Assembly: GCA_041650615.1 (NCBI GenBank)
Contig: JBAZKU010000001.1
Coordinates: 386,360-450,359, forward strand
Reading direction: 5' to 3'
Source of the DNA: Minisyncoccota bacterium
GTDB taxonomy: Bacteria > Patescibacteriota > Minisyncoccia > Phycocordibacterales > UBA9973
DNA: 64,000 nt
Shown here: positions 1,912-54,926 of the stretch, one piece after another
How the letters are laid out: the number at the start of each line of letters is the position of its first letter
Numbering within the stretch: the first letter of the stretch is position 1
The notes under the pieces: model-generated
The model's database searches: none
Told to the model about the DNA's origin: nothing
The model's input: only the letters and a program-made list of their open reading frames with translations
Translations under genes and position numbers: made by a program

Positions 1912-3837
1912 TTAGTTTTTTATTCCCAACTTTGCTTCGTCTCTTTTCTTCGGTATTATTCCATGCGCGATAATTATCTTATCATACTCATCTTGCTCTA
2001 GGGTTTCAACTTCAATAAGTTTAACAGCAATCGCGTCAAGCGCTTTTTTGTGTTCAGTTAAAACTTTCTCGGCTGATTTTATACCATCATTTATGATTCT
2101 GGAAACTTCAGCATCAACTTTTGTGGAAACTGTTTCAGAATATCCTTCTTCTCCTCTCATCTCTCCCCAATTTAATTTGCCTCCCTCCCCAACTAAACTA
2201 ATCGGACCGATTAAATCCGACATCCCCCAACGAGTGACCATGGCGCGAGCTAAATTCGTAGCCACTTGCAAATCACTTGAAGGTCCGGTAGTAATATCGC
2301 CAAAAACCATTTTTTCGGCAACATATCCGCCGAGGGACATTGCAATATCATCAATAAATTCTTTTTTGGACTGAAGCCGTCTATCTTCTAGGGGCAATTT
2401 TAGAGTATACCCCCCAGCGTTGCCACGAGCAATAATAGATACTTTGTGCACCGGGTCAGCATTCGGCAAAACAGATGCAACTATGGCATGTCCTGCCTCA
2501 TGATATGCGGTAATTTCTTTTTCTTTCTTGGAAAGTAAGTGGCTTTTTCTTTCAGGACCAAGCATTACTTTTTCAATAGCGCGAATCAGATCAAATTGAA
2601 AAACTTTCTTACGATTTTCCCGCGCCGCCAAAATGGCTCCTTCGTTCATTAAAGAATATAAATCAGCGCCGGAAAATCCAGGCGTTCGTTCGGCAATCAA
2701 TTTTAAATTAACATCTTCAGCTAATGGTTTTAATTTTGAATGAATTTCCAAAATTTCTTCGCGGTCTATGCGGTCCGGCAAATCTAGTAATACTTTCCTA
2801 TCAAAGCGTCCGGGACGAATAAGAGCCGGATCAAGCACATCTGGTCTATTGGTAGCCGCCATCACAATCACTTTTTCGTTGGGCTCAAAGCCGTCCATCT
2901 CAACTAAAATTTGGTTTAGGGTTTGTTCACGCTCGTCATTTCCTCCCCCAAATCCGCCTCCACGAGTACGCCCGATTGCATCAATTTCATCCATAAAGAT
3001 AATGGCAGGCGCGGATTTTTTGGCCATCTTGAAAAGATCACGCACTCGAGACGCCCCTACTCCAACAAACATTTCCACAAATTCGCTTCCGGATAAATGG
3101 AAAAATGGCACTATCGCTTCTCCTGCTACAGCACGCGCCAATAATGTTTTACCTGTTCCCGGAGCTCCGGTTAAAATTACTCCTTTGGGAATTCTAGCTC
3201 CTATATCCAAAAACTTTTTCGGATTTTTCAGAAAGTCTACAATTTCCTTCAATTCTTCTTTTGCTTCTTTACATCCGGCAACGTCTTTAAAAGTTACTTT
3301 ATTGTTTTTATCATTCGGGTCGGTAATACGAGCTTTGGATTGGCCGAAAGTAAATGCTTGCATACCCGCGCCTTTTACCTGGCGGGAAAGATACCAAAAG
3401 AAAAAGATTATGAAAAGAATCGGCAAAAGAAAAGGCAAGATATTCACCATCCAATACCAAAATCCGCTTTCATTTTTTATTTCTATGCTCGTTGCCGCTA
3501 AAACTTCCGGTTTTACTCCATAATTAAAAAGGGTTTGTGAAAGAGAAGATTCTGTTTCTTTTTTAGAAATTTTTATCGTATCGTCCTTATAGGTAATAGT
3601 CAAATTTTCTCCTTCAACTACAATTCCCTTCACCTCCCCGGCTGAAACGCTTTTAGCTAAATCGGAAATAGAAACATCAGGTATGGTCTTAGAAGTATCA
3701 GCTATTACCAAATAAAGCGCCGTAATGACCATAAAAATCAAAATAGCTCCAAGGATATTGCCCGAAAATTTAGGTGTTTCCTTTTTCTTTTTGCCTTTAT
3801 TTTTTGGCTCTTTTTGATTTAAAAAATTAAAATCCAT
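1912..3837 (-). CDS. ftsH: ATP-dependent zinc metalloprotease FtsH
   Basis: N-terminal TM segments, AAA Walker [19 protein letters not shown], zinc site HEAGHA. Confidence 0.93.
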
Positions 3838-3925
3838 CCCGTTAGAAATAGGAAATCTTTAGATTTCCGTAGTTAATTTTAATCATGAATAACCGTTAAA
3901 CTATATGATTTCTAACGGGATCCAT
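3832..3925. mobile_element. MITE-like element, family 1 copy A: 12-bp terminal inverted repeats CCCGTTAGAAAT/ATTTCTAACGGG flanked by direct repeat ATCCAT, fused to the ftsH start codon
   Basis: TIRs at 3838-3849 and 3908-3919; ATCCAT at 3832-3837 and 3920-3925; the left ATCCAT is the reverse complement of the ftsH ATG-GAT. Confidence 0.5.
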
Positions 3926-4156
3926 AGTCAGGCATTATAGCACAAAAATTTAAAAAATAAAAATTCGGTAAAAAAAATAGCTAATGAAATATTATTAGCT
4001 ATTTTTTATTTTGCTTTTTTTTACTCCACCATTCGTCAATGAAGTAACAGGTTGGGAAAAAAACTATTAAAAAAACAAAGGTTATAATCCCTGCTATTAA
4101 TTTTGCATTTTCCATATTTCCTCCAGATTATTTACAAAATAACATTAAAGAACTAT

Positions 4157-4558
4157 TTGTGGAGATGGGGGGAAATGAGCCCCCGTGCAGAAGGTTTCTG
4201 CAAAAAGATCTACATGCTTAGCGCGCTTTTTGTTTTTAATTGAAAAACTTAAAAACGAGCCAAATATTTTTCAATCGATTCCCTTTGTTTTGGAAAAAAG
4301 CCAGGACTTCTTTTTTCCTATCCCGATAATATTATGCCCAACTCTCATATATCGGAAGTCTATGAGAAGGACATCAGCTTACGCCGAAGCGGAAACTGAA
4401 GCGAAAGCAAAGTCCGCCGAACCGAAGTAAGGAGAAACAATTGCTCTGACTTTAGAAGCTAATTTTGCAATTAACATTTGAACGAATTTTAATGAGATTA
4501 CATTCATTCTCAACATGCATCTTTGCAAGTAGACCCACTGTCTATGCCTTGCATCCCC
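4157..4558 (-). ncRNA. ssrA: tmRNA (SsrA), candidate
   Basis: 12 nt downstream of the smpB stop on the same strand; 5' GGGGAUG pairs with 3' CAUCUCC-A giving the G3:U70 alanine identity wobble; 5' region resembles the E. coli tmRNA tRNA-like/PK1 region (GCAUGUUGAG vs GCAUGCCGAG); T-arm GGGGG-CUCAUUU-CCCCC; internal frame ends ...ADFAFASVSASA-stop; length about 400 nt. Confidence 0.6.
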
Positions 4559-9960: not shown

Positions 9961-10017
9961 ATCAGTATTATACGTCTTTCAAGAAAAATTCCCCACACTA
10001 AGTGGAGGATTTTTCTT

Positions 10018-10142
10018 AGGGTTATTTCCGATGTATTACCATAGCTTTATAGCTAGGTGGGTACCAGACGGATAAGACCAAGGTCAAACACGATCGAGGC
10101 TCCCATAAAATATTGTTCTAGGTAATAATCGGAAATAACCCT
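10018..10142. repeat. 15-bp perfect inverted repeat AGGGTTATTTCCGAT/ATCGGAAATAACCCT enclosing 95 nt; candidate structured ncRNA or MITE
   Basis: Read directly; interior holds further small palindromes (AGCTTTATAGCT). Confidence 0.4.
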
Positions 10143-10216
10143 ACTTAAAGTCTATGCCTTTTAAAAAAGTTAGCAACTGGACGAAACAATTTTTTCGTTT
10201 CTGAATTTTTTATTCT

Positions 10217-10943: not shown

Positions 10944-13703
10944 TTACTGCATCGAAGCATACCTAGCCATGATTTCTTTTTCCACTTCTTCGCGGTCACG
11001 ACCGTATTTTGTATAAGAAAGTTGTTTTAGACTGTCTACAATTTCCTTATTCCCCTCTTCCGGCGGTAGTGTTTTTAGATTAAAAGGTTTTGTCGGTTGA
11101 CCGTTTACCAACATACTCATATAAGCATTATAATTATCCAATTTGGTTATATCTTGAGCACTGAATGTTGGTTTGAATTTTGGCTCTAAGAAATTCGCGT
11201 CTTCCGTCCCAACGCGAAACACTGCCATTGAACCGACATTGCCAAAAACCGCATTCTTAATATTTTCCCCTAATTGAGTAATATACTGATGAGCAATATT
11301 AAGCGATAGTCTGTATTTTCTGGCCTCGGATAAAATGGAAGCGATAGAGTCGGTTGTTACGTTTTGAAATTCGTCTATGTATAGATAAAAATCATTTATC
11401 GGTTTGCCGAACATATCCACTCGGGAAAGCGCGGCCATTTGAATTTTACCTACAAGCACTAGACCAATCAAATTTGCATTAATATCGCCTAATCTGCCTT
11501 TGGAAAGATTCACCAGTAAAATTTTTTTCTCATCCATAATCTTTCTAAAGTTAAAAACCGAATTTTGTTGGAGCACCACCGGACGCATAATGTCATTGGA
11601 AATAAAATTATCAAATTTTGAAGAAATATAAGGTACAAAGTTTGCCAAGGATTGATCCCCGGTCGTTTGTTCGGCTGAAGTCCAGAACTGTTTTATAATA
11701 GGATTTTTACAGCGGGCTAATTTCAAATCACGAAATTCTTTATCTGCTAAAACTCTGGTAATCTCCAATAAAGTTGAGCCAGATTCGGGATCTTCCATAA
11801 CCAGAAAAGCACTATTGCGAAAATATTGCTCAAACATCGCCCCACCGCCGATTTTCATATCAAAAAGTTTATTAAAGATACCCATCATTTCATTTACCAC
11901 AAATGTTTTTTGCTCCGGATATTTCGGGTCATATTCCAGCATATTCAGCCCCATCGGTCGTATGGTATAAGCCGGGTCAAAATAAATCACATCATCCATG
12001 CGTTTTTTGGGGATACGGGACAAGATAGTTTGAATATCCGTCCCGTGAGGATCAATATAACAACAACCGTCGCCGTTTTTTATATCCTGCGTTATCATAT
12101 TAAGCATAATATTCGTTTTACCGGTTCCGGTTTGGCCAATAGTATAAAAATGCCTCATGCGATCTTCTCGCGACATATGAATAACAGTATCTTTTCCCCT
12201 GTAACTATTTACTCCTAGCACTATTCCCTCTTGTCCCATCTCTAACGGGGCGGGAGCAATGCCAGCTTTTGCTTCTTTTAATTGTGGCTGGCTTCCTATA
12301 CCGACAGGAAAATGAAACACGGAAGAAAGTTCTTTTAAATTCATAGGCAAAATCTTATCTCCAGAAAATGTGCGGTATGAAAAATCGTGGAAAAGTTCTT
12401 TCAACCCACTGTCGGAAATTCTCTCAAACATGAAAGAGTTGCTAGTTGATTCGGTAAATTGATTGAAAGAAGACTCTATTTCCGCCAGTATCATTAAGGC
12501 CCTTTCTTTTGTCGCAGCGGAAGCCACAACTCGAATATTTGCTTTCATGATTGTGCTTTTCATCTTATTGCCTATTTTTTCTATTGCGCCTTCATCTACC
12601 GCTTTTCTGCCTGCCACATATTTTTCCTCGGTCTTTTCTTTTTTCTTCACACCAAAAAGCAAATCTTTTGAAGCTTTCAAAAACGCCTTATTAAATTTAT
12701 AAAAATTATCCGCTGCATGTTTTACTGACATCCCTCCTTTAACATCATCTAAAATCAAATGAAATTCATCTATAAATTTCTCGCCAGCAGGAGCTATCAC
12801 CAGTTGAATGGCAGCACCTTCTCCTTTGGTTTCTAATTTCGAAAAAACATTGAGTAAAGTATTCATTGGATCGTGATCAATTTGATCATAAGTTTTTATA
12901 GGGAGAACAGAACGCTCTGAAAAATTAGCATAAGCTCCGATAGAGACACCATTCTCATTAAAAATATTATAATCATCTGTCACTTCACGGATTTTCGCAT
13001 CATGATAAAAAGCTAGAATTTGTTTCTCAAAAAGCGAGATATTTTTATTTGGTATAGCAGCATAAACTATCACCTCATCCGAGTTATTACTAAGCGCTAT
13101 TTCTAGCGTATAATAATTTTCTTTTTCATTATTTTTTCCTTCCGAGATAGATTGCATTCCTGCATAAAACTGTTCCATAGCACCGATAAATTCTTTAAAA
13201 TTTTTCTGTTTGTCGACTTCTTCCTTGGGCGGGGGAAGAGTTATTTCAAAAAGGGTCATATGAAGAGATTTAAAAAGAGGAGTCCCTTCTTTCAAATCAA
13301 ATATTTTACCTGTTTTTAAATATTGAATTAATACTCGGTGAAAATCATCATCTATGTGCGGATTCTCCATTGTTTCTACTATGGATAATGCATTTCTAAT
13401 TCCTTTAGTTATCACAATACCCAAAAGCTCTTCCATTTTACTATCATGAGTTTCGGGTTTAAGTGCAAGCACTATGCTTTCCGCTTCCTTTCTATTTATA
13501 ATGTTGTCTTTGTGGATAATTTCTTCTATAGGTTTTTCTTTATATTCTCCTATAATATCTTTCACCGCATTTTCATTCGCACGTTCAAGTTTCCCTTTGT
13601 CTATGAGTTCTTGTTCTCTTTTCGCAACATGAGCGCGCAAATAATCCAACTCTTCTTCCGGAGTTTTAAATTTTGGCGCTTCGCTCAAAAACGACTTTTC
13701 CAT
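10944..13703 (-). CDS. FtsK/HerA-superfamily P-loop ATPase, T4SS VirB4/VirD4 (TraC/TraG)-like, with a 500-aa soluble N-terminal region
   Basis: Walker A GQTGTGKT, IDPHGT, Walker B LYIDEFQN, ARKYRLSLNIAHQYITQL (T4SS ATPase RK...Q..QL motif); start set at MEKSFL (the upstream in-frame stretch is translation of a GC-rich repeat). Confidence 0.55.
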   Translation of the reverse strand: MEKSFLSEAPKFKTPEEELDYLRAHVAKREQELIDKGKLERANENAVKDIIGEYKEKPIEEIIHKDNIINRKEAESIVLALKPETHDSKMEELLGIVITKGIRNALSIVETMENPHIDDDFHRVLIQYLKTGKIFDLKEGTPLFKSLHMTLFEITLPPPKEEVDKQKNFKEFIGAMEQFYAGMQSISEGKNNEKENYYTLEIALSNNSDEVIVYAAIPNKNISLFEKQILAFYHDAKIREVTDDYNIFNENGVSIGAYANFSERSVLPIKTYDQIDHDPMNTLLNVFSKLETKGEGAAIQLVIAPAGEKFIDEFHLILDDVKGGMSVKHAADNFYKFNKAFLKASKDLLFGVKKKEKTEEKYVAGRKAVDEGAIEKIGNKMKSTIMKANIRVVASAATKERALMILAEIESSFNQFTESTSNSFMFERISDSGLKELFHDFSYRTFSGDKILPMNLKELSSVFHFPVGIGSQPQLKEAKAGIAPAPLEMGQEGIVLGVNSYRGKDTVIHMSREDRMRHFYTIGQTGTGKTNIMLNMITQDIKNGDGCCYIDPHGTDIQTILSRIPKKRMDDVIYFDPAYTIRPMGLNMLEYDPKYPEQKTFVVNEMMGIFNKLFDMKIGGGAMFEQYFRNSAFLVMEDPESGSTLLEITRVLADKEFRDLKLARCKNPIIKQFWTSAEQTTGDQSLANFVPYISSKFDNFISNDIMRPVVLQQNSVFNFRKIMDEKKILLVNLSKGRLGDINANLIGLVLVGKIQMAALSRVDMFGKPINDFYLYIDEFQNVTTDSIASILSEARKYRLSLNIAHQYITQLGENIKNAVFGNVGSMAVFRVGTEDANFLEPKFKPTFSAQDITKLDNYNAYMSMLVNGQPTKPFNLKTLPPEEGNKEIVDSLKQLSYTKYGRDREEVEKEIMARYASMQ

Positions 13704-15913: not shown

Positions 15914-15995
15914 ATAGAAAGATTACACAATTTTGGTGAAAAAATCAACCCACACACTTATTTTGGCTATACAAAATAAGTGTGTGGGTCAAGAT

Positions 15996-33631: not shown

Positions 33632-34849
33632 CTACACAAATGTCAATGCTATCCCTTTTTTGCCAGAACGGCCGGTGCGGCCGATGCGGTGCACATAGGT
33701 ATCGTAAGTTTGTGGAACATCATAGTTGATAACGTGTGTGACATCTGGAATGTCCAGTCCTCGAGCAGCGACATCGGTCGCTATTAAAATGTTGATATGG
33801 TCTTTTTTAAATAAATCCAAGGTGCGAATACGTTCGCGGCTTCTTTTATCGCCGTGAATACAGCCCACTTTAAATCCCAAGCGAGAAAGGTCTTTGGTGA
33901 GAGAATCCACGCTATGTTTCATTTCTCGAAAAATTAAAACTTTATCTGAACCTTCTCTTTTTAAGACTTCGTGCAGTTTATCAAGTTTTTCTTCTTTGCT
34001 TCTAGTGCGAATAATATCTTGGTCAATATTTTTGGCTGTTTCTCCGGAGATTACGGAGATAAAAACAGGGTCTTTGAGAAATTCTGTGGTTAATTTTTTT
34101 ACTTCCGCAGAAAGTGTCGCCGAAAAGAAAAGAGTTTGACGTTTTTCTTTAGGAACTTTTCCAAGTATGAAAACCATATCATCACGAAAGCCCATATCCA
34201 GCATTCTGTCTGCTTCATCCAGCACCACACTGTGGCATGTAGATAAATCTAATACTTTTCTATTTATCAAATCTTTTATGCGTCCCGGCGTACCAATAAT
34301 AAACGATACTCCTCTTTTTATTTCTGTAATCTGTCTCATTATCGGTAATCCCCCGACACAAGCCACGGAAAAAATTCCCAAACCAAAAGCCAGCGCGCGA
34401 AAATCGGATTCTATCTGCATGGCAAGCTCTCTGGTTGGAGCCATAATTAATACTTTTTCATTTTTTCTTTGTCCTTTAGTTTTAACAATTTTTTCTATTA
34501 AAGGAAGCATGAATGCTGCAGTTTTACCTGTGCCGGTATTGGCCATACCAAAAACATCTTTCCCTTCTAAAACAAAGAAAATAGCCTGGTCTTGAATTGG
34601 TCTTGGATTTATAAATCCAGCTCTGGCAATATTTTTATGAATTTGCGGATTAAAAGGAAAGTCTATAAAGGTATGCTTTGAAACATAAGGTTTTTCTTCA
34701 ATTTGTTGCCCTTTTTTAATAAAGCGAGAAAAATCTATGTGCTCAGAAAAACCTCTCTTTTTAGGACGATTATTATTTTTAAAATTCTTTTTAGAATTAA
34801 ATTTTGGACACCCAAATTTCTTCGGACCGGATAGTCGATGTGTATACAT
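33632..34849 (-). CDS. DEAD-box ATP-dependent RNA helicase
   Basis: Q-motif region, ANTGTGKT, DEAD, SAT, HRIGRTGR. Confidence 0.9.
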   Translation of the reverse strand: MYTHRLSGPKKFGCPKFNSKKNFKNNNRPKKRGFSEHIDFSRFIKKGQQIEEKPYVSKHTFIDFPFNPQIHKNIARAGFINPRPIQDQAIFFVLEGKDVFGMANTGTGKTAAFMLPLIEKIVKTKGQRKNEKVLIMAPTRELAMQIESDFRALAFGLGIFSVACVGGLPIMRQITEIKRGVSFIIGTPGRIKDLINRKVLDLSTCHSVVLDEADRMLDMGFRDDMVFILGKVPKEKRQTLFFSATLSAEVKKLTTEFLKDPVFISVISGETAKNIDQDIIRTRSKEEKLDKLHEVLKREGSDKVLIFREMKHSVDSLTKDLSRLGFKVGCIHGDKRSRERIRTLDLFKKDHINILIATDVAARGLDIPDVTHVINYDVPQTYDTYVHRIGRTGRSGKKGIALTFV

Positions 34850-34918: not shown

Positions 34919-34999
34919 GTCAACCCGGTAGTGAGACTTTACGACGCATCTTTGGATGCAGTGCTTCGCACATCGTAAAGTTCTACTAACCGGGTCAAC
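34919..34999. promoter_or_regulatory. 81-bp imperfect palindrome (half-site CCGGTAGTGAGACTTTACG) over the -35 region of the thyA leaderless promoter; family 3
   Basis: Arms 34919-34943 and 34974-34999; related copy at 53715-53752; TATAAT at 35032-35037, ATG at 35044. Confidence 0.5.
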
Positions 35000-35043: not shown

Positions 35044-35916
35044 ATGAGAGCTTACCTAGACATTGTAAAAAATGTTTTGGAAAACGGAGAGAAAAAAACC
35101 GATCGTACTGGGACAGGTACTTTGGCTATAGCCGGAGCAATTTTTAAACATGATATGAAAAATGGTTTTCCATTGTTAACTACCAAAAAAACTCCTTTCC
35201 GTTTAATCGCTTCCGAATTGGAGTTTTTTATTAAGGGAATTACCGATAAAAAATGGTTACAAGACAGGAATAATCATATTTGGGATGAATGGTGTACCCC
35301 CCTAAAAATTCCTTACGCTCATGATGAAGAAACAAAAAAGAAAATGTTGGCTGAAAGAGATTTGGGTGCAATTTATGGTTGGGAATGGCGACATTTTGGC
35401 GCTGAATATAAGGACTATCAAACAGATTACACAGGACAAGGAATTGACCAACTGAAACGGATGGTAGAAATGTTAAAAACAAAACCAGACAGTAGACAAA
35501 TGCTGGTACTAGCTTGGAATCCGTTGGATATTGAAAAAGCGGTTCCACCATATTGTCATTATGCCTTCCAAGTAACAGTTATTAATAATCGTCTGAATTT
35601 ATTTTGGAATCAGCGTAGCGTAGATGTGGCTCTTGGTTTGCCTTTTAATATTGCCAGCTATGCAACTCTTTTACATTTACTCGCCCTGGAAACCGGACTG
35701 GAAGAAGGAATGCTTATTGGTTTTTTGGCTGATACGCATATTTATCTTAATCACATTGATGGTTTAAAAGAACAGCTTACTCGAGATCCAAAAAAATATA
35801 AATTGCCACAAATCAAGACAAATAATTTCAAATCTATTTTTGATTGGCAATATACGGATTCAGAAATTATAAATTATGAAAGTTATCCTAGGATTCCATT
35901 TGAAATAGCAGTATAA
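35044..35916 (+). CDS. thyA: thymidylate synthase (ThyA family)
   Basis: DVALGLPFNIASYATLLHLLA, catalytic Cys in PPYCH (one extra residue versus the canonical PCH). Confidence 0.8.
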   Translation: MRAYLDIVKNVLENGEKKTDRTGTGTLAIAGAIFKHDMKNGFPLLTTKKTPFRLIASELEFFIKGITDKKWLQDRNNHIWDEWCTPLKIPYAHDEETKKKMLAERDLGAIYGWEWRHFGAEYKDYQTDYTGQGIDQLKRMVEMLKTKPDSRQMLVLAWNPLDIEKAVPPYCHYAFQVTVINNRLNLFWNQRSVDVALGLPFNIASYATLLHLLALETGLEEGMLIGFLADTHIYLNHIDGLKEQLTRDPKKYKLPQIKTNNFKSIFDWQYTDSEIINYESYPRIPFEIAV

Positions 35917-38903: not shown

Positions 38904-39698
38904 TTACTTTATTTCGTAAGTAATCGTGACATCCGAACTGATTGTATTTTCTCCTTTCGGTATTTCAACCGGAGCCGGGACAGACTCGCTAACACTATCC
39001 ATCGTTGCCTTAGCACTATACATCACTGGATAATTGCCGGACTCGCTAAAGGAAGTAATCTTTCCTAGTCGAACGCCTAAATCTTTAGCCAAAATTTTTG
39101 CTTTTTCTTTGGCATTATCAATTGCTTTTTTTCTGGCTTCTGCTTTTAGTGTATCCTCATTATCTATGGAAAAATTAGGTCCGCTTAAATCAGAAACGCC
39201 TAGCGTGCCAAGTCCCTGCATAATTTTACCTACATCATCAGTATTCCTAACTTTTACGGTTATACTTTCAGATGCGGTATAACCAACAATAACTCTTTTC
39301 TCGGGTCTGGTCGAATAACTATATTCCGTATAGGGTATTGCTGCTTTGGTATTGTATTGATATTCGTATTTTGGATAAAAAGAAGCATTAGTGGTTTTAA
39401 TATCTTTATCAGGAATATTATTCTCTTTCAAAAAATCCAGAGATTTCTTCTCAATTTCTGCAACCAGAGTTTGGGCTTCTTTGACTGTTTTAGCATCTTG
39501 ACTGATAGTGAAATAAATATTAGCAATATCGGGAACTGCTGTAACCTCTCCGTGTCCAGAAAAAGATATTGTATTTTCCGGTCTATTGTTATTTTTATTT
39601 TCAGCTAAAAAACTAACCGCAATGGCAACTAAAAAAGCGATTAAGGCAATTTCAAACCCGCGATATAATTTTATTTTGAGTTCCGTTGATATATTCAT
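38904..39698 (-). CDS. SIMPL-domain (DUF541) secreted/periplasmic protein
   Basis: N-terminal TM/signal, typical SIMPL length, charged C-terminal pattern. Confidence 0.6.
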   Translation of the reverse strand: MNISTELKIKLYRGFEIALIAFLVAIAVSFLAENKNNNRPENTISFSGHGEVTAVPDIANIYFTISQDAKTVKEAQTLVAEIEKKSLDFLKENNIPDKDIKTTNASFYPKYEYQYNTKAAIPYTEYSYSTRPEKRVIVGYTASESITVKVRNTDDVGKIMQGLGTLGVSDLSGPNFSIDNEDTLKAEARKKAIDNAKEKAKILAKDLGVRLGKITSFSESGNYPVMYSAKATMDSVSESVPAPVEIPKGENTISSDVTITYEIK

Positions 39699-39807
39699 CC
39701 CGTTTAGAAATCATACTATTTATACACATATTTTTATATATAAAAATAGTTGATTTATATTAAATTTATAACTTATTCCCGTTTTGTAAATTTCTAACGG
39801 GATTCAT
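39693..39807. mobile_element. MITE-like element, family 1 copy B: TIRs CCCGTTTAGAAAT/ATTTCTAACGGG, direct repeat ATTCAT, fused to the SIMPL gene start
   Basis: ATTCAT at 39693-39698 and 39802-39807; TIRs 39699-39711 and 39790-39801. Confidence 0.5.
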
Positions 39808-50123: not shown

Positions 50124-50936
50124 TTATTTTAGATTTATTATTTTTTTGAACTCAAGAGGTAAAGGAGATTCTACTTTTATTGTTTTGTCTTTTAAATTTT
50201 TAAATTCTATGGACTTCGCATGAAGCGCCAATCTTTTTAATCCTTTTGGGCAAGATCCATTCGGATTATAAAGAGAATCACAGGCTACTGGATGGTTTAT
50301 ATATTTCATATGCACGCGGATTTGATGCGTCCGTCCGGTTTTTGGATGAATTTCCAGATAAGAGAATCGCTCCGGCATTTTCTTTTTTGGGTCGCTGTCT
50401 CCGCGTGCTCGCGGAGCGCTGCCTCTCGGCTCGTCAGCCTGCGAGACACCCAAAAAAGGAACTACCGGAGCGGTAAAAAAGCGTTTCAAAACTCTGTACT
50501 CGGTAATTGCTTCGCGAAGTTCTCCCCTTACCCCGCGGCCAGCCAGATGTCGGCGAAAATCTTTCGGACTTCGCCCAATTGGTTTATTTATCGTGCCGTG
50601 GTCATTTTTTACAAATCCGGAAACAATAGAATGATAAGTCTTTTTTATTTCTCTTCCCTTAAATTGATTTTTAAAAAATTCATAAGCTTTTTGGTTTTTC
50701 ACCAAAAGCAAGACTCCAGAAGTTTCTTTATCTAGCCTGTGAACTATTCCTGGTTTTTTTATTTCTTTGCCTTCAAAAAAAATCGGCTCGCCTACATTTT
50801 TTATTTTGGGGTATTTTTTAACAACCCAATCGGTAATCGTTTCTTCTTTACTGCGCCCATCCGGATGCACAGAAACACCAGAGGGTTTATCTATGGCTAA
50901 AATATTAGAATCTTCGAATAAAATTTTAATTCTCAT
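50124..50936 (-). CDS. RluA-family pseudouridine synthase carrying an in-frame 25-aa GC-rich insertion
   Basis: HRLDKETSGVLLL, TGRTHQIRVH; insertion GVSQADEPRGSAPRARGDSDPKKKM encoded by 50383-50457. Confidence 0.8.
   Translation of the reverse strand: MRIKILFEDSNILAIDKPSGVSVHPDGRSKEETITDWVVKKYPKIKNVGEPIFFEGKEIKKPGIVHRLDKETSGVLLLVKNQKAYEFFKNQFKGREIKKTYHSIVSGFVKNDHGTINKPIGRSPKDFRRHLAGRGVRGELREAITEYRVLKRFFTAPVVPFLGVSQADEPRGSAPRARGDSDPKKKMPERFSYLEIHPKTGRTHQIRVHMKYINHPVACDSLYNPNGSCPKGLKRLALHAKSIEFKNLKDKTIKVESPLPLEFKKIINLK
50383..50457. mobile_element. GC-rich palindromic element, family 5 copy Z: 75 bp, 10-bp TIRs TTTTTTGGGT/ACCCAAAAAA, inside the rluA-like ORF in frame
   Basis: Internal palindromes CTCCGCG/CGCGGAG and GTCTC/GAGAC; local GC far above the genome background. 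Confidence 0.5.
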
Positions 50937-51144: not shown

Positions 51145-51450
51145 TTACAGCGATGGGTCAACAATAGGCGAAGGGGAACTTAAAATTTCAATGGATTTCT
51201 TCTCACGTTCTTTAAAATACTCCAGCACTTTATCAATTCTTTCTTTTTTTATTGCTTCCCGTTCATTGGTACTTAAAACTGGCGGATTCGGTTCCTTGTT
51301 TATTTTTATAAAAAGATAAAAATCAAACACAAAAGAGAGTATAATTAATATGAATGTTATATAAAGAATATACCTCCAATAAAGATCCGGTTTAATCCCC
51401 AACCCTCCTTTTCTGAACCTTTTTTCCCTTTTCAAAAATTTTATTTCCAT
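51145..51450 (-). CDS. small single-pass membrane protein (hypothetical; position after pilO suggests a possible PilP-like accessory)
   Basis: One TM helix, 101 aa; family-1 element fused to its start. Confidence 0.4.
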   Translation of the reverse strand: MEIKFLKREKRFRKGGLGIKPDLYWRYILYITFILIILSFVFDFYLFIKINKEPNPPVLSTNEREAIKKERIDKVLEYFKEREKKSIEILSSPSPIVDPSL

Positions 51451-51521
51451 CCCGTTAGAAATCTTAATATTTATAATTTTTTCTTTTTATTTCCCGTTAG
51501 TGAATTTCTAACGGGATCCAT
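51445..51521. mobile_element. MITE-like element, family 1 copy C: TIRs CCCGTTAGAAAT/ATTTCTAACGGG, flanks TTCCAT/ATCCAT
   Basis: TIRs 51451-51462 and 51504-51515; inner hairpin CCCGTTAG-TGAATTT-CTAACGGG. Confidence 0.5.
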
Positions 51522-54550: not shown

Positions 54551-54622
54551 ACCCCCACACTTATATTTGCAATACAACTTCGTTGCGCGCCTTTGGCGCT
54601 TTGCAAATATAAGTGTGGGGGT
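54551..54622. promoter_or_regulatory. 22-bp perfect inverted repeat ACCCCCACACTTATATTTGCAA/TTGCAAATATAAGTGTGGGGGT around a GC hairpin GCGCGCCTTTGGCGC, in the divergent ruvX / 54657 promoter region
   Basis: Read directly; the GTGTGGGGG motif recurs at 56976 and, reverse-complemented, at 9991. Confidence 0.5.
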
Positions 54623-54656
54623 AGCATAAAAAATTTATTTCTGGTATAATGCGTGC

Positions 54657-54926
54657 ATGATGAACCAATTAAATCCGTTTTTAGTTAGTGGAGGGTGGGG
54701 GTATATTACTATTATATTATTGGTGTGGACTTTGTTTTGGAAAGGATGTTCCTTATGGATAGCGGGCAAAAGGGATGAAAAATGGTGGTTTTTAGCGCTC
54801 CTTGTACTTAATACCGCCGGCATCTTAGATATTGTATATATTTTCCTTATTGCCAAAAAGAAGTGGAGTGATGTGCAGGGAATTTTTACTAAAAAAGCAC
54901 CTCAAAATCAATCCGCTAATCAATAA
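54657..54926 (+). CDS. small membrane protein (hypothetical)
   Basis: 2-3 TM helices; TATAAT, 6 nt, then ATG. Confidence 0.45.
   Translation: MMNQLNPFLVSGGWGYITIILLVWTLFWKGCSLWIAGKRDEKWWFLALLVLNTAGILDIVYIFLIAKKKWSDVQGIFTKKAPQNQSANQ

Follow-up and report, generated by a model that had tools for sequence, protein, structure and literature searches.

Short inverted-repeat elements on the start codons of three Minisyncoccota genes, probable members of a widespread family of non-autonomous transposons

We focus here on three short palindromic elements, A, B and C, in 64,000 nucleotides of a Minisyncoccota genome (GenBank contig JBAZKU010000001.1, positions 386,360 to 450,359 of the forward strand; this whole stretch is called the window, and coordinates below are positions in it). 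The elements are placed exactly on the start codons of ftsH, of a SIMPL/YggE gene and of a gene for a 101-residue membrane protein, all three of which lie on the minus strand. We consider it very probable that they are copies of a non-autonomous DNA transposon, that is, a miniature transposable element with inverted repeats (MITE), and that they persist as tolerated selfish DNA at gene starts. All testable features of such an element were found, namely short non-coding sequence, common inverted repeats, a duplication of fixed length, empty sites and dispersed copies. A first-pass annotation of the window had offered two readings, a non-autonomous transposon family and a riboregulatory module on a small envelope and stress regulon; the former is now favoured by empty sites at all three loci, by a 4-bp duplication that is significant among 124 listed copies and by the presence of copies in many phyla. 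The family is widespread and apparently has not been described before: our literature search returned no description of it, which is not proof of absence, and the arm sequence matched unrelated primers only in full-text literature.

Three insertions and their empty sites

First of all, the arms are far more frequent in the window than shuffled sequence predicts. The 12-mer CCCGTTAGAAAT has five exact matches and one with a single mismatch, against 0.54 expected from dinucleotide-preserving shuffles, and the sequence features of the three elements were found again where the first-pass annotation had placed them. Their terminal inverted repeats, put there at 12 bp, are indeed present but measure 13 bp, T-CCCGTTAGAAAT ... 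ATTTCTAACGGG-A, in the window elements, and the gene-proximal arm of B falls short of a full 12/12 match through a 1-nt insertion (CCCGTTTAGAAAT, also written ATTTCTAAACGGG); in a second sample of this species the extra base is a different one (ATTTCTCAACGGG). On the minus strand every locus is laid out as 5'-ATG-RA-[Y CCCGTTAGAAAT ... ATTTCTAACGGG R]-TG-RA-gene, and the last base of the inverted repeat is the first base of the start codon in A, B and C, just as the repeat had been reported to run into the start codon. The flanking direct repeats are 4 bp long (TGGA, TGAA and TGGA in A, B and C, respectively) and not 6 bp as first proposed. The 6-mers consist of a flanking A, the 4-bp duplication and the thirteenth base of the repeat, and this mixture of flank, duplication and repeat explains why the pair TTCCAT/ATCCAT at C had looked imperfect. 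A one-mismatch arm match at 12238, inside a 961-residue open reading frame (ORF) and with no partner arm, is probably due to chance.

Second, orthologous starts without the element, for which the first-pass annotation had proposed to search, were found for A, B and C. FtsH orthologues of about 87–90% identity, in four genomic contexts (L120–L124), have a single ATGGAT, preceded by TTTTGTGCTAT(T/G/A)(G/A)T and 6–8 nt; the window has the same promoter, then ATGGAT, element A and a second ATGGAT. B is missing from SIMPL orthologues at 75–77% identity (L126–L131) and is present in another sample of the same species. For C, orthologues at 73–75% identity (L138–L141) read ...AAT followed by ATGGAAATAAAA, with ATGGAA rather than ATGGAT at the start, and three contigs of the same species (L135–L137) are filled identically. 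In C, ancestral ATGGAA has thus become A-TGGA-[T...A]-TGGA-A, which yields a 4-bp duplication and 13-bp repeats. Since the empty sites are clean in orthologues at 73–92% protein identity, A, B and C are lineage-specific insertions, and vertical conservation of the element at these positions is contradicted.

The same comparison bears on the other reading of the first-pass annotation, according to which the elements are co-opted riboregulators. In such a model the paired arms would mask the site of initiation until the inner hairpin or the upstream ORF, responding to temperature, to a protein or to the state of translation, exposed it, and ftsH, the SIMPL gene and the membrane-protein gene would form an envelope and stress regulon. 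RNA folding lends this some appeal. The arms pair as a stem of 13–14 bp with its end at the start codon (z-scores −2.4 to −5.8), in line with the leader folding that had been anticipated, and in C the local hairpin and the long-range arm pairing are nearly isoenergetic. The element is missing, however, from the same genes in these relatives, and regulation thus cannot be ancestral to these genes; elsewhere it precedes unrelated housekeeping genes or sits within ORFs; and Rfam holds no family for the elements, with only sub-threshold chance matches (whole window at the gathering threshold; A and C at E up to 10). We thus regard a co-opted riboregulator as very improbable.

The three elements are 67–105 bp long and contain only incidental ORFs of 9–16 codons. 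All that their interiors share is a partial arm copy, placed internally beside the gene-distal repeat. In each, the displaced upstream ATG opens a short ORF covering arm 1, which stops before the TAA of the proximal arm, so that none of the three is read through in frame. The inner hairpin that had been attributed to B and C exists there but is not confined to them, for A has CCGTTA..TAACGG.

Element A (3837–3920, minus strand), which measures 84 bp with both repeats included, reads TCCCGTTAGAAAT...ATTTCTAACGGGA and lies in the start codon of ftsH (1912–3837, minus strand; 641 residues with AAA and Peptidase_M41 domains). Its gene-proximal 13-bp repeat occupies 3837–3849, base 3837 doubling as the A of the ftsH ATG, and its gene-distal repeat 3908–3920. 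The duplicated TGGA stands at 3833–3836, where it makes up bases 2–5 of ftsH, and again at 3921–3924 (both minus strand); the orthologues have one ATGGAT only. From the displaced start, an upstream ORF (3896–3925, minus strand) would be translated as MDPVRNHIV, and a second small ORF, MIKINYGNLKISYF (3842–3886, minus strand), stops at the TAA of the proximal repeat, 4 nt before the ftsH ATG. The inner hairpin GGAAATCTAAAGATTTCC (3851–3868, minus strand) marks an interior subfamily that is also found at loci L031, L085 and L111 and, further, at L045, L053, L066, L069 and L076, with different genes behind. The distal ATG of A is preceded, at a distance of 8 nt, by an extended −10 element, TGCTATAAT (3934–3942, minus strand), which is kept as TGCTAT(T/G/A)(G/A)T 6–8 nt upstream of the ATG in the empty-site orthologues; a −10 element conserved so near the ATG points to a leaderless or near-leaderless ftsH mRNA, as judged from the probable transcription start.

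Element B (105 bp; 39698–39802, minus strand) lies in the start codon of the SIMPL/YggE-family gene (38904–39698, minus strand; 264 residues, PF04402), between TGAA at 39694–39697 and TGAA at 39803–39806 (both minus strand). The upstream ORF from its displaced start is MNPVRNLQNGNKL (39766–39807, minus strand), and an inner arm copy, CCCGTT on the plus strand (39778–39783), pairs locally with the gene-distal arm. Element C (67 bp; 51450–51516, minus strand) lies in the start codon of the gene for the 101-residue predicted membrane protein (51145–51450, minus strand), with TGGA at 51446–51449 and 51517–51520 (both minus strand). Its displaced start opens the ORF MDPVRNSLTGNKKKKL (51471–51521, minus strand), and its inner arm copy, CCCGTTAG (51493–51500), forms an 8–9 bp local hairpin with the gene-distal arm.

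Around ftsH, a tmRNA gene (4157–4558, minus strand; 114 bits with Rfam, not reported by ARAGORN) lies just upstream. In relatives smpB stands beside ftsH, and the tmRNA/smpB/ftsH neighbourhood is conserved yet rearranged. Three Nomurabacteria orthologues of FtsH with AAA and Peptidase_M41 domains (P0008, P0061 and P0098) are named 'Lysyl-tRNA synthetase' in public records, which looks like an annotation error carried across several metagenome-assembled genomes (MAGs). In four further FtsH proteins of 654–667 residues (P0030, P0065, P0067 and P0068) the gene calls run 14–30 residues upstream of the conserved MDFNFLN start; these extensions contain neither PVRN nor ISNG and are thus not due to this element, and they may be over-called starts.

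A family in many phyla

A scan with the pattern CCGTTAGAAAT-N35-65-ATTTCTAACGG over one genome per bacterial or archaeal species matched at least 119 loci, so that the copies in other genomes which the first-pass annotation had suggested looking for do exist; the statistics below refer to 124 copies among the matches listed (at least 119 loci, up to 8 kb each). Most of the listed loci belong to Patescibacteria of many classes. The other hosts are Planctomycetota (Pirellulales, Phycisphaerae and Sedimentisphaerales), Omnitrophota, Elusimicrobia, delta- and gammaproteobacteria, Thermodesulfobacteriota, Nitrospiraceae (Nitrospirota), WOR-3, KSB1, Kazan, Clostridia and others, and the loci together span more than 10 phylum-level groups. 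Several genomes hold 2–5 copies within 8 kb, and the window holds 3 in 64 kb. Carriage by phages was considered and rejected, with only 3 matches among 2.9 million viral contigs.

The base outside each 12-mer is complementary to its counterpart in 94% of the copies (C..G or T..A), and the repeat is thus 13 bp long, with the consensus Y-CCCGTTAGAAAT. Its outer core, CCCGTTAGA, is invariant in variant copies, and arm positions 10–12 vary yet stay complementary (AGAAGC/GCTTCT, AGAGGT/ACCTCT, AGAATT/AATTCT). Such co-variation would suit a riboregulator, but it is equally expected for two ends that are bound by one transposase, and a further point against riboregulation is that the interiors are not conserved. 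They are non-coding, variable and about 40–80 bp long; 95 of 121 have no detectable relative among the listed copies, and among the few interior subfamilies that recur across genomes, before different genes, are a long, GC-rich hairpin and that of element A, GGAAATC..GATTTCC. Beyond the 13-bp repeat the bases read T-N-N-A on both sides, and an exact 4-bp duplication is present in 74 copies (shuffle mean 8.9, maximum 17). Every seemingly solo arm has a partner, if a degenerate one, within about 120 bp, in a pattern search that spanned arms up to 600 bp apart. The translated peptides of the elements matched no Pfam family.

Common inverted repeats around variable AT-rich interiors, together with the occurrence of the GGAAATC...GATTTCC subfamily in both orientations relative to the neighbouring gene, might also recall an inverton, in which the DNA enclosed by the repeats is inverted by a site-specific recombinase and the downstream gene thereby switched on or off. 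The opposite orientations, however, are found at different, non-orthologous loci, as expected from insertion either way, and contigs of the same species from three to four samples are identical in orientation. Promoter-like −10 hexamers within the elements have no strand bias (48 sense versus 56 antisense), no recombinase recurs nearby in the 119 listed loci, and neither flanking 4-bp duplications nor empty sites are characteristic of invertons. This explanation is therefore exceedingly improbable.

Two groups of copies are recorded here as observations in their own right. In a Phycisphaerae MAG, two near-identical 66-bp copies (L070:3454-3519 and L070:7821-7886) each follow an ATGAAT and are separated by 4.4 kb. 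The first can be read without a stop from the displaced ATG across its full length and on into a gene of about 447 residues, and the second locus is truncated after 38 codons. Either a recent duplication or two fresh insertions may account for the pair. The start-fused copies (as defined below) at L011, L012, L014, L021 and L064, from Saccharibacteria, Patescibacteria, Kaiserbacteria and Kazan, have a common distal flank, AC(T/C)TGT, no matching duplication and no distal start codon; they could reflect another target, a variant with a longer repeat, or rearrangement of the copies.

Start codons, reading frames and likely RNA-level selection

Copies joined to the start codon, ATG or GTG, of an ORF no shorter than 40 residues, which we call start-fused, make up 53 of the 124 (about 43%). 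The duplication on start codons is TGAA in 24 copies, TGGA in 7 and TGAG in 4; off start codons it is TAAA/TTTA in 16, TGAA/TTCA in 5, TCAA/TTGA in 4 and TTAA in 2. Since the non-start duplications are mostly TNAA, the intrinsic target is approximately TNAA; the target ATGRAT of the first-pass annotation is thus too narrow, and start codons represent a favoured or surviving subset of targets. Start codons account for 41 of the 772 TNNA sites in the window that are non-coding or at a start codon, and for 37 of 126 such TGRA sites. Against a uniform TNNA model the surplus on start codons is real; it is only modest if TGAA is intrinsically preferred. The genes struck include those for several tRNA synthetases, DnaA, MurJ, Mur ligases, pyruvate kinase, CorA, a ribosome hibernation factor and FtsH. 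The 69 downstream proteins at the listed loci map to 114 Pfam families, none with more than 3 members, and form no large clusters; the idea of a regulon was rejected because the downstream genes are unrelated.

A strong −10 element lies 5–9 nt upstream of the displaced ATG in 11 of 37 start-fused copies, compared with 9% of control ORF starts (p = 5e-4), and beside the duplication in only 2 of 45 other intergenic copies listed. General targeting of transcription starts was rejected on the latter count, and the contrast suggests that copies survive better where a gene can do without a Shine-Dalgarno sequence. Among the window genes, 13 of 83 have a Shine-Dalgarno-like motif and 15 of 83 a strong −10 element 5–9 nt upstream of the start. 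This Shine-Dalgarno-poor, leaderless-rich appearance is window-wide; examples are the −10 element at 3934–3942 (minus strand) and TGGTATAAT at 54643–54651 (plus strand), 6 nt before an ATG at 54657.

The distal start codon is missing from 17 of 55 start-fused copies and retained in 38. Its fate in those 38 is read-through in frame in 6, a stop at the arm TAA in 8 and an earlier stop in 24, and an N-terminal extension was thus rejected as the main route to tolerance. The TAA of the proximal arm, where the 8 stop, sits 4 nt before the AUG of the gene. Use of the proximal AUG may depend on reinitiation after small ORFs, on entry independent of Shine-Dalgarno sequences or on processing of the stem. 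The small ORFs also bring to mind a leader-peptide attenuator of the ermC/tnaC type, with M-(D/N)-P-V-R-N... as a sensor peptide and with its translation, or stalling, over arm 1 deciding whether arm 1 pairs to segment 2 or to the proximal arm. An ATG-initiated ORF does cover arm 1 in all three window copies, the three segments are laid out for alternative pairing, and the 8 copies that end at the proximal TAA are as such a model would have them. The empty sites show, however, that the upstream ATG is merely the displaced start of the gene itself; PVRN is the translated repeat, the length and sequence of the peptide vary freely past it, and some start-fused copies, as noted, lack a distal start codon. 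An attenuator is thus very unlikely.

Long outward ORFs are in frame with the arm (ATT TCT AAC GGG) in 75 of 99 cases among the listed copies, and about 18 listed copies lie in frame inside long ORFs, where they read ...PVRN...ISNG... or ...PLEI...FLTG...; the third frame through the arms contains TAG and TAA. Two of the three frames are thus free of stops through both arms, and copies whose length is a multiple of three can therefore survive within coding regions; the length is divisible by three in 62 of 120 listed copies. In GlyRS (residues 232–253) and GatB (residues 371–392), inserts of 22 residues each are missing from homologues of known structure, and past them the alignment picks up again at the same homologue residue. 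The open frames and the excess of lengths divisible by three suggest that intragenic copies are translated as peptide.

The inner arm copy of start-fused copies is next to the gene-distal arm in 30 cases and next to the proximal arm in 2, and it often pairs through G.U, which is workable in the sense strand only (AGCGGGA, AATGGGA). This asymmetry would suit a riboregulator, and it is likely that some RNA-level selection acts on copies at gene starts. In copies off gene starts, the orientation of the duplication relative to the inner-copy asymmetry is balanced (TAAA 3, TTTA 3), and the target sequence thus does not set the orientation. An internal outward promoter was rejected as the cause of the bias, −10-like hexamers being equally common in antisense. 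The bias may reflect a kinetic decoy, in which arm 1 would be caught by the inner copy during transcription, leaving the proximal arm free; strand-specific insertion remains as an alternative. The latter would be at home in single-strand HUH/Y1 transposition, as in the palindromic elements derived from IS200/IS605 or in REP/RAYT elements, since the elements form hairpins and copies off gene starts are mostly co-oriented with local genes (about 16:4). IS200/IS605-derived and REP/RAYT elements insert beside a fixed tetra- or pentanucleotide and make no duplication. Here, on the other hand, the 4-mer is not constant between sites, and it is duplicated at filled sites but single at empty ones; the 4-bp duplication excludes the single-strand HUH mechanism, to which we thus give very little weight.

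For the transposon interpretation, we propose the following course of events. Each copy entered the lineage of the window after its split from congeners, by a 4-bp staggered cut that a DDE-type transposase acting in trans could have made, and landed on a TG(A/G)A spanning the start codon and the second codon. The final purine of the repeat, together with the duplicated TGNA, rebuilds an ATG (elsewhere also a GTG) ahead of the original frame, and the ORF thus stays intact. The original start codon is moved 70–110 nt upstream, where it now opens a short ORF, M-D/N-P-V-R-N.... Such insertions could persist because initiation in these genomes is largely independent of Shine-Dalgarno sequences and leaderless or coupled genes would tolerate them, and survival would be best when the inner copy traps the distal arm, perhaps co-transcriptionally, so that the start region stays open.

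Several observations weigh against this interpretation, or at least against its simplest form. First, neither an autonomous partner nor a linked transposase was found, and no protein recurs in the 119 listed loci (up to 8 kb). Second, exact duplication is missing in 50 of the 124 copies. Third, the window's three copies are alike in their arms only, which is unusual for a young burst of MITEs in one genome. Fourth, presence/absence polymorphism was not found within the species: all same-species contigs carry B and C, and recent activity is thus not demonstrated, while for ftsH neither an empty nor a filled junction was found in the metagenome collection, which is therefore uninformative on A. 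Fifth, the 43% share of start codons is far above the neutral expectation of about 5% (non-coding TNNA sites, window), and ftsH would need to be translated from an internal AUG without a Shine-Dalgarno sequence. Finally, the start region is unpaired at 0.228 in native and 0.241 in interior-flipped sequences in equilibrium folding, and since the two do not differ, the thermodynamic form of the decoy-hairpin idea was rejected. The first-pass annotation had proposed that the inner hairpin competes with the long-range pairing; this has indirect support from the 30:2 orientation bias.

Taken together, the ends kept constant across phyla, the surplus at starts of genes independent of Shine-Dalgarno sequences, the open frames through the arms and the strong orientation bias suggest that the element has been shaped or filtered for compatibility with gene expression. 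A bolder version, which we put forward only tentatively and consider doubtful as a whole, is that of a pan-bacterial 'coding-compatible' family, whose ends are harmless at gene starts and inside genes. These ends would rebuild the start, leave two frames open, offer the arm TAA 4 nt before the start for termination and reinitiation, and supply a distal decoy hairpin by which the region of initiation stays open; the element would be mobilised by a putative prokaryotic piggyBac/IS1380-like enzyme and would spread across phyla, preferentially into the 5' ends of genes without Shine-Dalgarno sequences, including leaderless ones. RNase III might even cut the hairpin out of the mRNA, a process that has been reported for Correia elements.

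Related palindromes and comparison with known systems

The window contains further palindromic elements, and two that have TCAA duplications have repeats beginning with CCCGG and CCCAC. At 34924–34994 lies a near-perfect palindrome of 71 bp, CCCGGTAGTGAGACTTTACGA...TCGTAAAGTTCTACTAACCGGG, with TCAA flanks at 34920–34923 and 34995–34998, in the divergent intergenic region between the ORFs at 33632–34849 (minus strand) and 35044–35916 (plus strand). Its folding energy is −41 kcal/mol (z = −7.5), and its ends, CCC(C/G)GTTAG, resemble the family studied here; judged by sequence, it may belong to a sister MITE family. Elements at 15949–15988 (40 bp, flanked by TCAA/TCAA) and 54551–54622 (22-nt perfect arms, flanked by TAGCA/TAGCA) have common ACCC(C)CACACTTAT... 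arms. They follow the pattern TNAA-CCC...GGG, which suggests several MITE families with one transposition chemistry. Long inverted repeats with 25-nt arms are found at 50368–50472 and 10008–10152 (88% and 84% complementarity; arms 55 and 95 nt apart, respectively).

If our interpretation is right, one small transposon with the same 13-bp ends has colonised very distant phyla, mainly the candidate phyla radiation and Planctomycetota, and the positions at which it preferentially survives are start codons and in-frame sites of essential genes (ftsH, tRNA synthetases, gatB and dnaA). For annotation, this means that a transposon may be the source of start codons, small upstream ORFs and 'inserts' of 20–30 residues in conserved proteins from uncultured bacteria. 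Comparing alleles of a single gene with and without the element would furthermore allow initiation to be tested in Shine-Dalgarno-poor, leaderless-rich lineages. For the window itself, the elements give no evidence of a heat-shock or envelope regulon.

In overall design the elements resemble the bacterial MITEs reviewed in PMC10969869 (Correia/CREE of Neisseria, ERIC, RUP and Nezha), which are likewise short and non-coding, have inverted repeats and a duplication of fixed length, are dispersed and present or absent among relatives, and form hairpins that are co-transcribed with neighbouring genes. They differ from Correia/CREE, ERIC, RUP and Nezha in the repeat, YCCCGTTAGA..., and in the 4-bp TNAA duplication. 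They also differ from other bacterial MITEs in that the same 13-bp ends occur in more than 10 phylum-level groups and in that about 43% of copies rebuild a start codon; the term 'start codon' does not occur in the review. Rickettsia palindromic elements (Ogata et al. 2000, via PMC10969869), of about 100–150 bp and confined to Rickettsia, are another case of palindromic selfish DNA that is kept in frame within essential genes and read as peptide. Going by their description, they differ in size, ends and host range, and the three copies in the window are not read through.

Stable hairpins before a start codon have a precedent in phage T4, where genes 38 and 25 have split ribosome-binding sites that are bridged by a hairpin. 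Here too, a stable hairpin that separates the start codon from signals further upstream may loop out, so that initiation still works. The upstream signal in our case, however, would be the promoter or the old start codon, not a Shine-Dalgarno sequence.

Finally, the 13-bp repeat of piggyBac, CCCTAGAAAGATA, resembles CCCGTTAGAAAT. The piggyBac and IS1380 elements have a 4-bp duplication of a TTAA-like site, where the elements described here have one of 4 bp at TNAA (TAAA, TGAA, TCAA, TTAA), and both have short repeats starting with CCC; the CCC motif has been described, the IS1380 family has been placed as the prokaryotic outgroup or relatives of piggyBac, and duplication variants such as TAAA and TCAA have been reported for some piggyBac elements (PMC10813416). 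Differences are that TTAA is rare here (2 copies), that an extra pyrimidine precedes CCC and that piggyBac is eukaryotic. By analogy, the signature TNAA-CCC...GGG-TNAA would point to a piggyBac/IS1380-like transposase, and if it leads to a prokaryotic piggyBac-like enzyme, this will bear on the origin of that superfamily.

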